Positions 3,482 to 51,316 of a stretch of 64,000 nucleotides of DNA are shown piece by piece (the first letter of the stretch is position 1; each line of letters opens with the position of its first letter). The DNA comes from Acidobacteriota bacterium (lineage in GTDB: Bacteria > Acidobacteriota > UBA6911 > RPQK01 > JAJDTT01). The notes under the pieces were generated by a model. That model was not told the origin of the DNA, ran no database searches, and saw nothing but the letters and a program-made list of their open reading frames with translations. Position numbers and translations under genes: made by a program. Location: assembly GCA_965217775.1 (NCBI GenBank), contig CBDCJH010000002.1, positions 4,032,001 to 4,096,000 of the forward strand, given 5' to 3'.

Positions 3482-4828
3482 TCAACTCGCACCATTGCCG
3501 GCAAACTTGGCGAGCAATGGGATGGATTCGACCCCCATCTCGAAATAGTGGGGATCTTTCTCTATTCCGATCGACTCGTATCCCAACGCCTCGGCTGCCG
3601 CCAGCGTAGATCCTGCACCCGCAAAGGGATCGACGACCACACCTTCCCCCAAAGGAAGAACGCCCCTCACAAGCTGCCGCAAGAACTGTTGCGGCTTCAG
3701 GCTGGGGTGCGGAGCCAGTGCCCTTTCATTTTTTCTGGTCGGCGAGGATCTAATGACATCGCCAAACGGTTTCGCGTCCGAGGGCCGCCGGAAGCCCCCC
3801 GTTTTCCACTTCCGAAGATTGTCCTGTATCCTCCCTTCGACTGGTTTGCGGAACAGAATCCACGGTTCCCACATCGATCTAGGCATGACGCTGACGTCCT
3901 TGAACTCCTGGTGGGCTGCTTTTGGCCGATCCCCTCCCCGCATGGTCATCACCAGCCGGATAATTTCACCCCGTCGTTCCAACCCGGCATCGGACAGCGC
4001 ATTGGAGACGATGAATGAGAGCAGCGGATTGGACGCAACGATCACATTCGCCCCAGGTACCAACTTGGGGGCCAGGAGGCGCGCCCAGACAAAGAAAAAC
4101 GTGCGAATCTGCTCTCGCTGTGAATCGGTCAGCGTAGTGAAGAGAGGCAGCGGCGATCTTTTGTGTCCATCGAAGGAAGGAGGAATTCGCCAGACTCCTC
4201 CCTTGCCCCGTCTCAGTTTCCGTTGCTCCTTCGGAGAGTATTCCTGCAGACCGTAGGGCGGGTCCGTAACTACGGCGTGGATGGTCGCATCGGTCCGGCG
4301 ATCCAGCCAATCAAAACAGTCGCCATGGACCAGTGTCGCCATCCCATATCGAAATGGCTCATTCCAAAGTTCTGTACTGTTCAGGCGACGCAGCCAACTG
4401 CCAACGTAACCTTTGCGAAGCCGGTAGAAACCCCGTTTCTCCCTACAGAACAGATCTGGTGTATTCAGTCTCAACAGTCCGTGGTGAAAGTCCCGCGAGC
4501 ACCGAGACCGTTCCTGCGCCCGCCGGACAAGGCGCGATTCGGGTGCATACCGGGAGTATGTGCCCGAATCGCAACGCCGTCCGCCGGGATGCAGGGACGG
4601 TCGAATGCCGTGATGACTTTTGCCACGGGCTGTCAAGTAAGATCGCACCGAGGATTCAGGCGTTGAGCCCATGACTCGAGTCACTCTTTGCTCGATCTGC
4701 TGCACTGACAGGGCCTCGGATGTCAGATTCAGAATCTGGAGGATGGCGTCACGGACCCGCCCGGGAGCAGGTCTGGCCTTCTTGCTGCTGATACCGATGA
4801 AACATCCGATAAGTCGTCCAGACGTCAT
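3482..4828 (-). CDS. Orphan N4/N6 DNA methyltransferase (beta-class motif order) with N-terminal HTH-like region carrying an in-frame 54-aa MITE insert
   Basis: TDPPY, HPSLKP and DPFAGAGST motifs. No adjacent endonuclease gene recognised. Confidence 0.85.
   Translation of the reverse strand: MTSGRLIGCFIGISSKKARPAPGRVRDAILQILNLTSEALSVQQIEQRVTRVMGSTPESSVRSYLTARGKSHHGIRPSLHPGGRRCDSGTYSRYAPESRLVRRAQERSRCSRDFHHGLLRLNTPDLFCREKRGFYRLRKGYVGSWLRRLNSTELWNEPFRYGMATLVHGDCFDWLDRRTDATIHAVVTDPPYGLQEYSPKEQRKLRRGKGGVWRIPPSFDGHKRSPLPLFTTLTDSQREQIRTFFFVWARLLAPKLVPGANVIVASNPLLSFIVSNALSDAGLERRGEIIRLVMTMRGGDRPKAAHQEFKDVSVMPRSMWEPWILFRKPVEGRIQDNLRKWKTGGFRRPSDAKPFGDVIRSSPTRKNERALAPHPSLKPQQFLRQLVRGVLPLGEGVVVDPFAGAGSTLAAAEALGYESIGIEKDPHYFEMGVESIPLLAKFAGNGAS
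4475..4632. mobile_element. MITE family A, copy 1 (158 bp, TSD TCAA), inside the methyltransferase CDS
   Basis: TIRs cagtccgtggtgaaagtc / gacttttgccacgggctg (15/18 match). tcaa on both flanks. Identical to the reverse complement of 49233-49390. Confidence 0.95.
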
Positions 4829-20319: not shown

Positions 20320-20478
20320 CAGTCCGTGGTGAAAGTCCCGCGAGCACCGAGACCGTTCCTGCGCCCGCCGGACAAGGCGCTTCGGAGGGAGCATACCGGG
20401 AGTATGTGACCGAGTCGCAACGCAGTCCGCCGGGATGCAGGGACGGTCGAATGCCGTGACGACTTTTGCCACGGGCTG
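20320..20478. mobile_element. MITE family A, copy 2 (159 bp, TSD CTTG), intergenic
   Basis: Same TIRs as copy 1. cttg on both flanks. One nt longer in the central stem. Confidence 0.93.
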
Positions 20479-38958: not shown

Positions 38959-39116
38959 CAGCCCGTGGCAAAAGTCGTCACGGCATTCGACCGTCCCTGC
39001 ATCCCGGCGGACTGCGTTGCTATCGGCTCACATACTCCCGTTATGCTCCCTCATCGCGCCTTGTCCGGCGGGCGCAGGAACGGTCTCGGTGCTCGCGCGA
39101 CCTTCACCACGGACTG
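38959..39116. mobile_element. MITE family A, copy 3 (158 bp, TSD ATAA), inserted at a stop codon
   Basis: Same TIRs in the opposite orientation to copies 1 and 2. ataa on both flanks. More diverged centre. Confidence 0.92.
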
Positions 39117-43188: not shown

Positions 43189-43951
43189 CGCGACACTCCG
43201 ACGCCGTTGGGAATTCGTTATTCATTCACCGGCGACGGAGAGCCTGCCAAGCTGTCCATCGTCTTGGGCGGGCAGTGCGAGAGCGAACAGAGGGAGTAGC
43301 GTCCCCCGTCGCAGCCTCCGGCTATGAGTGTAGCCAACCGTCCTGTGGTCTATCCTCGTGACTATGGAGATCCGTCCCGCAGCACTAGCCGATCTCGAAA
43401 CCGTCGTTGAATTCAACGCGCGTCTGGCGCAGGAATCGGAAGGAGTGCATTTGGACAAGGACCGACTGAGAGCGGGGGTCGCTGCGCTGTTGCGTGACCA
43501 GACACTGGGCCTTTACTTCATAGCGGAGTCAGAGTCCGGCCCGGCCGGGCAGTTGGCGCTGACCTACGAATGGAGCGACTGGAGGAACAGCATGTTCTGG
43601 TGGCTTCAAAGTGTCTACGTGCGCCCGGAATTCCGACGCGAAGGGGTTCTACGCGCTCTTTACGGCCACGTTCTGGAGCTGGCGAAGGACCGCGGCGTGT
43701 GCGGGATCCGCCTGTATGTCGAGAAGGAAAACCGTACTGCTCAAGAGGCGTACCGACGGCTGGGAATGGCCCGGGCAGTGTTTCACATGTACGAAGTTGA
43801 TTTCGTGATCGTCCGAGAGCCCTAAGTTGTGACTCGGTGGACGGAGTGAGGTAGGCGGACGCTGCAAGAGCGCCTCCCACAGTTTCATCGCGGCATTTCC
43901 ATGCGGGCTTTCCGGCAGCAAGGAACGACGGTAGCAACGTTCAAGGGCGGG
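43189..43951 (+). repeat. 763-bp direct repeat, copy 1 (GNAT gene plus flanks)
   Basis: Near-identical to 51576-52338. Confidence 0.95.
43358..43825 (+). CDS. GNAT N-acetyltransferase
   Basis: TYEWSDWRN, SVYVRPEFRREGV, RLYVEKEN..A...Y..LGM. Confidence 0.9.
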   Translation: MTMEIRPAALADLETVVEFNARLAQESEGVHLDKDRLRAGVAALLRDQTLGLYFIAESESGPAGQLALTYEWSDWRNSMFWWLQSVYVRPEFRREGVLRALYGHVLELAKDRGVCGIRLYVEKENRTAQEAYRRLGMARAVFHMYEVDFVIVREP

Positions 43952-44047
43952 AGAAGGGGACAGTTACCTTCTCTACGAGTTTGTGGGGACTCAACCCCGG
44001 AAGCGGACCCGGAGCCGGCGCCCGAGCGGGTACAATTTCAACAGCGG

Positions 44048-48708: not shown

Positions 48709-49046
48709 GGTTGACGGCCTCCGTATCGGTCGGTGAAGAACCTCGGGATGAATTCCACCGTCAATCTTACATAACTAACGTGAAAACTAAGTGAATATAT
48801 GAATGTATATGGTGAAATTATGGTGATAATTTCTTCGATCGATTATTTTTCTTGGCGGGTGACCCCAAAACGGATCACGATCCGGGGTCCGACGAAGATG
48901 TGAGAGGGAGGAGCACCGAAGCCCCGGTTCGATGGAATCAAGTGCCAGGGCGGCGCAGCTTCAGGCTGAGTGCGGACGGAACAAGGCCGGGGGCCACCGG
49001 TTCGGAGGTTCTTTCGTCAGATCTGTGTCACCGAACGAGCCAGGCG

Positions 49047-51098
49047 ATGAGCCGCCCAGTTTTGGCGGTCGTATTGCTCCCGGCTCTGATCCGGTTCACA
49101 ACTGAGCGAGGGGAGAACAGGACAGTCACCTTCTCTGCGCGTTTCCAGAACGTGAGCGGTCCCCAGTTCGAGCCCCCAAAAAACGAGGTTCTGGCGTGGC
49201 ATCCCGGCTCCGTGATGCCGCGCAAGGCCTACCAGCCCGTGGCAAAAGTCATCACGGCATTCGACCGTCCCTGCATCCCGGCGGACGGCGTTGCGATTCG
49301 GGCACATACTCCCGGTATGCACCCGAATCGCGCCTTGTCCGGCGGGCGCAGGAACGGTCTCGGTGCTCGCGGGACTTTCACCACGGACTGCTACGCCATA
49401 GTGCGCCGCGGCAAGCACGCGTTCGAGGCGATCGTCGATCTCACCGCGGACCAGGTTGCATCCTGGTCACCGCTGACGGACGTCCAGCCGAACTGGACTG
49501 AAAAGGATTTCAAAGCTGTAGTCGACAAAGTGCTGGAACACCCGGACTTCATCTCCGGGCTCGCGGCTCGCGGAATCACCGACCCTACGTTCCTCGACTG
49601 CAGCACGGGACCGCCGGGCTACTTCGGAACGGAGGAAGAGCGCGGTCGGCGCATTGGCAACGTCCGGTGCTCCGAGCCCCGCGGAGTCCGAAACACTTGG
49701 ACGCGGCAGGTCGAGGGCCTGTCTGCGGTGGTCGATCTCGACTCGGAGGAGGTGCTGCGGGTCGTGGACGACGGTCCCGTCCCGATCACCAGCACCGACG
49801 GCGACTTCGACCGCACGACGCTCAAACGCCCCCGCGAGGTTCCGGGCCCGCTCGACACGCGTCAGCCGCTCGGTCCCGGATTCGAACTCGACGGGTACCG
49901 GGTACGTTGGCAGAACTGGCGATTCCACCTGCGGCCCGACCAACGCGTCGGTGCGGTCCTCTCACTGGTGAGCTACCAGGAAAAACCCGGGGGACCAGCC
50001 CGATCAGTGTTGTACCAAGGGCATTTGTCAGAAATATTCGTTCCTTATATGGACCCCTCGTTCGGATGGTACCGACGTAACTTCCTCGACGCCGGCGAAT
50101 TCATGGCCAGCGGGTTGGCGAAGGCTCTACTTCGCGGCCGTGACTGTCCCGACTACGCCGCGGATCTCGACACCGTGATCAGCAACGAGAAGGGCCGCCC
50201 GCGAACAGTGCCGGACACGATTTGTGTTTTCGAGAGGGAAACGGGTGATCCTGCTTGGCGCCATTGGTCTTCCGAGCTGCCGGACAGTCGGCGGAGCCGC
50301 GACCTCGTCGTGCGCGTTGGCGCCGTAGTCGGCAACTACGATTATCTGCTCGACTGGATCTTCCGCCAGGACGGTGCGATCGAGGTGCGCGTGGGTGCCA
50401 CCGGTATCCTGGAAGTAAAGGCAACCGAGGCGGAGAACGCATCGCAGGCAGAACCGGGCGCCGATGCCTATGGCCGATTCGTGGATCGCAATATAGTGAC
50501 GGTGAATCACGACCACTACTTCAGCTACCGCCTCGACCTGGACGTCGACGGAACCAATAACCGCTTCGTCACCGACCGCCTGGTCACGCGGCGGCTGCCC
50601 GAAGGGCACCCCCGCCGCAGCCTGTGGGTCCGGTAGGAGCAGGTCCCGGCCAGCGAGCACGACGCGCGCCTCGACATCGACTTTGAACGTCCGGCTCTGT
50701 GGCGTGTTCTCAGCAACGACCGGCGAAACTCCTCCGGCTATCCAACGAGCTTCCAGGTGTTTCCCGGCAGGAACGCCAACGCGCTACTGTCGGAAGACGA
50801 CTACCCGCGTCGGCGCGCCGGCTTCATCGATCACCACCTCTGGGTAACGCCGCAGCGGGACGGGGAACGTCATGCCGCCGGCGATCACCCGACCTTGAGC
50901 GAGCCCGGCCAAGGGCTGCCCGCGTGGACGGCAGCCGACCGGCCGATCCGTGACACGGACATTGTCGTCTGGCACACCATCGGCATGCATCATCTACCGC
51001 GCTCCGAGGACTGGCCGGTTATGCCGACGATGTGGTACGGCTTCGAGCTTCGGCCCTTCGACTTCTTTGACCGCAACCCTGCGCTCGACCTCCCCTGA
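49047..51098 (+). pseudogene. Copper amine oxidase (TynA-like), disrupted
   Basis: SEIFVPY, VGNYDY (TPQ site), HDH, HHLPRSEDWPVMP, PFDFFDRNPALD. In-frame TAG at 50634-50636, in-frame MITE, altered N-terminus. Confidence 0.85.
49233..49390. mobile_element. MITE family A, copy 4 (158 bp, TSD CTAC), in-frame in the amine oxidase
   Basis: ctac on both flanks. Removing it restores PRKAY-AIVRRG. Confidence 0.95.
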
Positions 51099-51161: not shown

Positions 51162-51316
51162 GGCAGAAGGGGACGGCAGAAGGGGACGGGGACGGCAGAA
51201 GGGGACGGGGACGGCAGAAGGGGACAGTTACGTTCTCTACTCTGGCCCGACTCTCTGAGGGGACGGGGACGGCAGAAGGGGACAGTTACGTTCTCTACTC
51301 TGGCCCGACTCTCTGA
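51162..51316 (+). repeat. Compound tandem repeat: GGCAGAAGGGGAC / GGGGAC stutters plus a 58-bp tandem duplication
   Basis: 51201-51258 is repeated at 51259-51316. Each unit contains the GGGGACAGTTAC motif. Confidence 0.88.

Follow-up and report, generated by a model that had tools for sequence, protein, structure and literature searches.

A small, abundant and recently active MITE in an Acidobacteriota genome, with a likely IS1182-like mobilizer and occasional in-frame insertions into genes

The 64,000-bp stretch of Acidobacteriota DNA analyzed here (the window; C2:4032001-4096000 of genome G000, which comprises 6.43 Mb in two contigs at 62% GC) contains four copies of a short palindromic element, two of which lie inside genes and can be read through in frame. 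The initial annotation of the window took the element to be built to write 54-residue peptides into proteins. Based on a genome-wide census, comparison with related species and an examination of the copies in genes, we consider it very probable that the element is a small, abundant, recently active and non-coding MITE (miniature inverted-repeat transposable element) that is mobilized by an IS1182-like insertion sequence (IS), and that its in-frame insertions into genes are an incidental by-product. Copies in genes are depleted, young, random in frame and orientation and, where the orthologous site is readable, unshared with other species. These observations speak against a peptide-writing element.

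Structure and abundance of the element

Alignment of the four window copies with their flanks (Table 1) places the ends of the element at CAG...CTG. The terminal inverted repeats (TIRs), CAGTCCGTGGTGAAAGTC and CAGCCCGTGGCAAAAGTC, are 18 bp long and imperfect, matching at 15 of 18 positions, and the 4-bp target-site duplications (TSDs) differ from copy to copy (TCAA, CTTG, ATAA and CTAC on the + strand); in all these points the alignment bears out the initial annotation. The sequence of the 158-160 bp copies is a near-perfect hairpin without coding capacity of its own. The copies at 4475 and 49233 are 100% reverse-complementary over 158 nt. According to our own gene calls, both the 159-bp copy, as had been stated, and the copy at 38959 are intergenic, the latter lying 3 bp downstream of the end of a called gene. 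Folding, which had been suggested as a check, predicts a strong hairpin on both strands: a single long hairpin of -114.2 kcal/mol (z -12.0) on the strand that begins with CAGTCC (the CAGTCC strand) and a fold of -96.4 kcal/mol (z -8.5) on the opposite one (the CAGCCC strand).

When the genome was searched with the element (blastn), 273 high-scoring segment pairs (HSPs) were retrieved, corresponding to 213 full-length copies and 60 partial HSPs. The full-length copies total 33,702 bp, or 0.52% of the genome. The full-length copies are mostly 158 bp long (149 copies), with 34 of 159 bp, 20 of 160 bp and 10 of other lengths. CAGTCC...GGGCTG ends are present in 180 of the 213 copies and an exact 4-bp TSD in 154, most of the remaining TSDs being off by one base. 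Given 213 full-length copies, 154 of them with exact TSDs, the repeat is far beyond chance. The TSD spectrum is mostly of the form NTAN (TTAA 27, CTAG 19, ATAT 13, TTGA 13, GTAG 12 and TTAG 10), and both insertion orientations are seen at NTAN sites.

Recent activity within a single genus

The family was seen in only one genus among the 41 genomes searched in all. It is present in all eight of the other species of the genus that were searched, and was not found in 32 further genomes, 6 from the sister genus and 26 from other families of the order.

Several insertion sites can be compared directly between species. The methyltransferase site of copy 4475 is empty in the relative G005, where the two flanks meet with a 4-bp overlap and the protein reads ...SVRSYL RLNTPDLF..., and the amine oxidase site of copy 49233 is empty in both G004 and G005, its flanks likewise overlapping by 4 bp. 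In the reverse comparison, 110 copies from relatives were traced to the orthologous site in G000. In 34 cases this site is empty and in 11 it is filled; another 6 sites are arranged in some other way and 59 could not be aligned. This sample consists of the best-scoring 30 loci per genome (G001, G005, G006 and G007, plus a few other loci) and is, because of that choice, biased to young copies. The empty orthologous sites imply that the element has moved since these species split. Within G000, 46 of the 213 copies match the window copy exactly and 81 have one or more exact duplicates among the remaining copies. Thus, the element has been recently active, as first proposed: many copies are identical to the window copy, and orthologous sites are empty in relatives. 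We envisage a recent burst in this genome of an element that occurs across the whole genus.

Copies 100% identical to the window copy also occur in G001, G003, G006 and G007, whose flanking genes are only ~89-98% identical to those of G000 (~89-90% for G001). Either the active master sequence is under tight constraint from end to end, or the element moves between species of the genus together with its IS.

A partner insertion sequence

It had been guessed from the termini that the element has ends of the IS5/IS1182 type, and a search for a transposase with the same TIRs was put forward as a check. A TIR-motif search of the genome located three full-length elements of 1475/1476 bp, one of them intact, with CAGCCCGTGGCAAAA-type ends on both sides and TSDs of CTAG, TTAG/CTAG and TCAA (Table 1). 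The 452-aa transposase of the intact copy contains the Pfam domains DUF772, DDE_Tnp_1_6 and DDE_Tnp_1, a combination that fits the IS5/IS1182 superfamily. Its best NCBIfam match is the IS1182 model NF033551 (171 bits, E 3.5e-50). This score is below the curated cut-off of 270 bits, as is that for the next-best model, IS5_4 (80 against 140), and we therefore label the transposase IS1182-like only and do not file it as a member. The guess from the termini is upheld to that extent: an IS with matching TIRs and TSD encodes an IS1182-like DDE transposase.

The right end of the MITE is the same as the IS end over 18 bp. The likeness is confined to the terminal 16-18 bp and the interiors are unrelated. 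Because the MITE and the 1476-bp IS share their ends and the length of their TSD, the IS is the likely mobilizer of the MITE, with the IS1182-like DDE transposase acting in trans. Insertion, through either a cut-and-paste or a copy-in route, would use short target sites, most of them NTAN tetranucleotides (such as TTAA, CTAG and ATAT). The element thus combines what is expected of a MITE: it is short and non-coding, with TIRs and a TSD of fixed length, and shares the genome with an autonomous IS that has the same ends and TSD. Of note, the two frameshifted IS copies are 6.4 kb apart and may form a composite transposon or result from a recent segmental duplication.

Table 1 Positions of the MITE copies, host genes, partner IS copies and other repeats (positions without prefix are those of the window)
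Feature	Position	Strand	Size	Remarks
MITE copy	4475..4632	+	158 bp	The family's commonest sequence; TSD TCAA at 4471-4474 and 4633-4636; codons 66-119 of the DNA methyltransferase ORF
MITE copy	20320..20478	+	159 bp	Variant subfamily; TSD CTTG; intergenic
MITE copy	38959..39116	-	158 bp	~92% identity to copy 4475; TSD ATAA on + strand
MITE copy	49233..49390	-	158 bp	TSD CTAC; in N2 domain region of decayed copper amine oxidase gene
DNA methyltransferase open reading frame (ORF)	3482..4828	-	448 aa	N6_N4_Mtase domain at aa 183-432
Copper amine oxidase pseudogene	48852..51098	+		MITE insertion; in-frame stop at 50634-50636
Partner IS, intact	C2:2325898-2327373		1476 bp	TSD TCAA; 452-aa ORF; 84% identical to the other two
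Partner IS, frameshifted gene	C2:310455-311929			100% identical to the next
Partner IS, frameshifted gene	C2:316892-318366			100% identical to the preceding
AbiEii-type nucleotidyltransferase gene (L024)	C2:3843835-3844566			Type IV toxin-antitoxin; MITE near domain N-terminus
AbiEii-type nucleotidyltransferase gene (L014)	C2:951244-952206			Type IV toxin-antitoxin; MITE near domain N-terminus
Head-to-tail MITE pair	C2:483865-484186
Head-to-tail MITE pair	C2:2174457-2174777
Head-to-tail MITE pair	C2:4957274-4957593
Head-to-tail MITE pair in relative	G006, 4517024/4517186
Short MITE derivative	C2:985933-986027		~97 bp
Short MITE derivative	C2:3579131-3579227		~97 bp
Short MITE derivative	C2:4889634-4889730		~97 bp
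Short MITE derivative	C2:5007959-5008055		~97 bp
Interrupted MITE copy (L003)	C2:1656568-1658241
Interrupted MITE copy	C2:3134809-3136482
Interrupted MITE copy	C2:5760147-5761892
Interrupted MITE copy	C2:6039542-6041287
Second repeat family	43927-43976
Second repeat family	49089-49138
Second repeat family	51191-51315
Duplicated block	43186-43485/51573-51872
Duplicated block	35335-35504/51401-51571

Insertions into genes

Both hosts in the window read as first described. The insert in the methyltransferase ORF reads SVRSYL-[TARGK...HHGLL]-RLNTP and that in the amine oxidase (ORF 48852-50636, + strand) reads PRKAY-[QPVAK...TDCY]-AIVRR; the two copies are identical, use different frames and have the CAGCCC strand as sense. 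The methyltransferase carries its 54-aa insert in the N-terminal region, outside the N6_N4_Mtase domain, and its ORF is otherwise intact. Its ortholog in G005 is an uninterrupted open frame of 393 codons. The amine oxidase gene is a pseudogene even apart from the MITE, with two further lesions. Only profile positions 3-240 of 407 of the catalytic domain are matched before the in-frame stop, a nonsense codon that the initial annotation had correctly entered as a caveat, and homology resumes past the stop, to ~51098. Homology to the orthologs is also lost ~48-63 bp upstream of the MITE. The ortholog in G004 is an intact ORF of 684 codons.

The decayed amine oxidase is surrounded by a second repeat family, with the core GGGGACAGTTAC[C/G]TTCTC, and by longer duplicated blocks (98% and 92-100% identical; Table 1). 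One copy of this second family sits where homology to the N-terminus of the amine oxidase orthologs ends.

To place all copies relative to genes, we applied our own simple codon-usage gene caller to the genome after removal of every copy and one TSD, which gave 4286 genes at 83% coding density. Insertion points fall in called genes for 58 of the 213 copies, whereas the expectation is 83% for uniform random insertion and 61% for tetranucleotide-matched sites. Many of the 58 are artefacts, because N-termini are over-long or because the insertion is at a stop codon. Based on Pfam, GAPDH and LMW phosphatase were rejected as hosts since the MITE is upstream of the true start, and ThiC since the MITE is at the stop codon. 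By hand judgement of the coding score on both sides and of Pfam matches we curated a set of 19 intragenic copies, leaving out a 159-bp copy in a doubtful N-terminal extension (L035). To guard against hand-picking, we also used a strict automated rule that demanded, on either side of the copy, an open stretch of 40 or more codons with a codon score of 8 or higher. It retained 11 of the 213 copies, nine of which are in the curated set. Applied to the relatives, it retained 7 of the 110 copies, 11 of the 110 sharing their site with G000. The genic share is thus 19/213 (~9%, curated) or 11/213 (automated), against an expectation of 61-83%.

Besides the two genes in the window, the hosts of the curated copies include two different AbiEii genes, one read through and the other with stops, and a TnpB gene interrupted within its TNB domain. 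Of two TonB-type outer-membrane barrels hit, one is split with stops and one is struck near its C-terminus; one of these barrels is at C2:1101265. The others are tetratricopeptide repeat (TPR) proteins, a multi-domain AlbA_2/HATPase_c_4 regulator at C2:6055724 struck between domains, a giant He_PIG/LamG protein and hypothetical proteins. The host genes are accessory or already broken or decayed.

Nearly all of these insertions are young. For 18 of the 19 copies in the curated set there is another copy with no more than one base of difference, and the intragenic share is 18/120 among young copies so defined and 1/93 among older ones. We conclude from this age distribution that in-frame copies do not persist in genes. 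At the orthologous site in G006 of the AlbA_2/HATPase_c_4 regulator (L032) both copies are absent, matches to a TPR gene (L022) in three relatives end at the MITE boundary, and the search for the site of L030 returned only a diverged, paralog-like match to one flank. None of the five open in-frame intragenic copies of the relatives has its site filled in G000. Thus, in this small sample, no in-frame intragenic insertion with a readable orthologous site was found filled in another species. Genic insertions would be selected against or avoided, those that are seen being recent, in dispensable or broken genes, and lost with time. The idea that the element inserts without harm finds no support, given the strong depletion of intragenic copies, the youth of almost all of them, and the accessory or decayed nature of their hosts.

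Preservation of reading frames

A copy and its TSD add 158 + 4 = 162 nt, and five of the six frames of the consensus element are open, the sole closed frame being offset 1 of the CAGTCC strand, with TGA at three places. The arithmetic and the count of open frames given in the initial annotation therefore stand. Since 162 is divisible by three and stops are scarce in the GC-rich palindrome, a copy in a gene would usually leave the frame open. Of the curated 19, 13 leave the frame open, 4 occupy the closed frame (expectation 3.2) and 2 owe a stop to a point change; the CAGCCC strand is sense in 11 and the CAGTCC strand in 8. The 18 copies found with the strict rule in G000 and its relatives give a similar picture: 12 keep the frame open, 3 occupy the closed one (expectation 3.0), 2 have a point-change stop and one is a 159-bp copy.

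At least five open frames are found in 3.4% of intergenic and 6.3% of genic 158-bp segments of the genome, and in 7.5% of intergenic segments with at least 62% GC. The caveat that stop-poor frames are common in GC-rich DNA was thus well placed. Combined with the one-in-three chance that the length fits, the open frames are a mild, post-hoc coincidence.

Some points weigh against an incidental origin of the in-frame insertions and against mobilization by the IS. Shuffled versions of the element seldom reach at least five open frames (0.4% for mononucleotide and 1.6% for hairpin-preserving shuffles). The intragenic copies are all 158 bp long (19/149, against 0/64 for other lengths; Fisher p = 0.001), which is exactly the outcome expected if preservation of the frame were selected for. 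Among hosts with Pfam information, 5 of 7 open in-frame inserts fall outside domains or between them and all 4 stop-bearing inserts fall within domains, a weak hint, in small numbers, that working genes tolerate some in-frame inserts. The gene calls rest on our own simple codon-usage caller, and the 19 copies were chosen by hand. Lastly, the MITE resembles the IS only over the terminal 16-18 bp, and trans-mobilization is inferred.

The frame-related observations, together with the 13 of 19 open frames and the otherwise intact methyltransferase ORF, are what would be expected of an adaptation like that of the Rickettsia palindromic elements (RPEs), in which a 158-bp subfamily was selected to be frame-neutral and stop-free and some hosts work with the 54-residue insert and may acquire new surface peptides. 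We consider this unlikely. The low genic share and the single intragenic copy among 93 older ones oppose it, as do the closed-frame hits at the chance rate (4/19 and 3/18), the unbiased orientation and the lack of any examined in-frame intragenic insertion that is filled in another species. The contrast in length is explained by age: young copies are nearly all 158 bp, and once age is controlled the difference is gone (p = 0.59). At least five open frames occur in 3-7.5% of real genome segments, and the amine oxidase, one of the two exemplars, bears two other lesions and is a pseudogene.

The excess of 158-bp genic copies in the all-open orientation that the initial annotation proposed to look for is accordingly present for length (p = 0.001), is gone among young copies, and is not seen for orientation (11:8). 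The annotation had set random length and orientation, with uniformly pseudogenized hosts, as the opposite outcome; orientation is random, whereas the lengths are all 158 bp and the methyltransferase is otherwise intact.

A related proposal, to which we give equally little weight, is that the 158-bp subfamily has been partly successful through its compatibility with translation, selection on master copies having purged stop codons and settled a length that, with the 4-bp TSD, adds exactly 54 codons. On this view, hits in loops or linkers would be almost neutral and might now and then contribute new stretches of peptide, and an RPE-like process with a known transposase would be running today in a free-living or sponge-associated acidobacterium. 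An adaptive element would offer a live, tractable system for selfish DNA seeding new protein segments, a process called unexplored for Rickettsia RPEs in an excerpt of PMC10969869. The evidence speaks against it.

RNA-level observations and other modes of transposition

The hairpin might instead act in RNA, as a terminator, an mRNA stabilizer or a small-RNA precursor, its spread being secondary, as proposed for REP, ERIC and Correia elements. The fold is indeed of very high stability (-114 kcal/mol, z -12), one strand exceeding the other by 18 kcal/mol, the majority of copies are intergenic, and copies are found in an RNA library of a sponge metagenome (X17). However, no Rfam family matches at threshold: four weak matches are all far below their gathering scores, the best scoring 20 bits where 124 are required. 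On the CAGTCC strand the mismatches of the TIRs are wobbles; counted along the entire hairpin, however, G:U pairs number 8 on one strand and 7 on the other, without a one-sided wobble signature. In co-directional spacers the intergenic copies are oriented 51 to 36 with respect to the neighbouring genes, which is not a significant bias, and the classes of intergenic context track spacer frequencies. Presence in an RNA library is not proof of transcription, as DNA carry-over is possible. That the element's main role is at the RNA level therefore appears decidedly improbable.

In X17, many MITE contigs with varied flanks were found (29 of 78 aligned were at least 99% alike), with the element alone and nothing of the neighbouring methyltransferase. 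Small shares of the sequence words were found in other sponge, coral and marine runs. In runs X1, X4 and X5 (contigs; library kind unspecified), contigs span both gene-MITE junctions, which confirms the filled methyltransferase site, and no contig in these three runs joins 4474 to 4637. Joints inside the element in run contigs (skips of 61-90) fit deletion derivatives of other copies.

The palindromic shape and the TnpB (IS605-type) genes of the genome, one hosting a copy, might suggest a single-strand hairpin element, REP/BIME-like or of the IS200/IS605 type, that depends on a Y1 (RAYT/TnpA) enzyme and is not a DDE-mobilized MITE. This is hardly credible: Y1-mobilized elements are not known to make TSDs, whereas here exact 4-bp TSDs flank 154 of the 213 copies, a DDE IS has identical ends and a TSD of equal length, and insertions at NTAN sites are in both orientations.

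Comparison with known systems

As a MITE with a resident IS, the element resembles Nezha and ISNpu3 of cyanobacteria, as these are described in excerpts of PMC3184786. Nezha, too, is small and non-coding, with the TIRs of a resident IS and the same short TSD, and has a very stable hairpin, many copies and both filled and empty orthologous sites. In contrast to IS-sharing MITEs such as Nezha, the element shares with its IS only the terminal 16-18 bp, and it is therefore not a simple internal-deletion derivative of the IS. It also differs in being confined to one genus among the genomes searched.

The RPEs, to which the element had been compared initially, are likewise palindromic repeats of ~150 bp with copies that can be read in frame inside genes. 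According to excerpts of PMC10969869, they sit in ORFs unusually often, with in-frame insertion in 11 of 12 homologous elements of three other Rickettsia species. The analogy holds for the palindromic form and the readable frames and not for a large in-frame share in ORFs or for retention across species: the copies described here are ~9% genic, young and unseen at shared sites, and hit the closed frame at the chance rate. Unlike RPEs, the element has clear TIRs and TSDs and a partner IS.

ERIC, BOX, QMITE1 and the Anabaena MITEs, as well as RPEs, are reported to fuse with host ORFs in frame (excerpts of PMC10969869 and PMC3184786). The first four, which differ in sequence and host from the present element, are alike in that the fusions are occasional, and in these excerpts they are described without evidence of function.

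No description of this MITE family was found in the literature searched, in which the one Acidobacteria paper to mention MITEs names them solely among its references. A MITE/IS pair is a known kind of system, and the family is apparently undescribed. It provides a well-documented active MITE/IS pair in the Acidobacteriota. For annotation, it implies ~20 genes that have a 54-codon insert or are split, and that are liable to automatic mis-calling.

Tandem copies, derivatives and interrupted copies

Three pairs of copies in G000 are arranged head to tail in the same orientation with an exact 4-bp gap, and a similar pair occurs in G006 (Table 1). These pairs look as if the newer copy had inserted into the TSD of the resident one. 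Four ~97-bp derivatives retain element positions 1-52 and 104-158, the top of the hairpin having been deleted internally. Five variants of 170 bp are present in G005.

Four further copies are interrupted by an insert of ~1.5 kb at the identical point, between ...GAGGGAG and CATAC..., near the tip of the hairpin. The insert codes for an RNA-guided transposase of 317 aa that belongs to the IS110 family (NF033542; the score of 217 bits exceeds the cut-off of 140). Given four copies interrupted at one internal point, the MITE hairpin is a specific landing site for an IS110-type element, and the MITE is of use both for marking strains and as a landing pad for such an element. Insertion into the hairpin is similar to that of the IS110/IS1111 elements that target REP sequences; REP-type repeats serve as IS targets, according to excerpts of PMC10969869 and PMC3184786.

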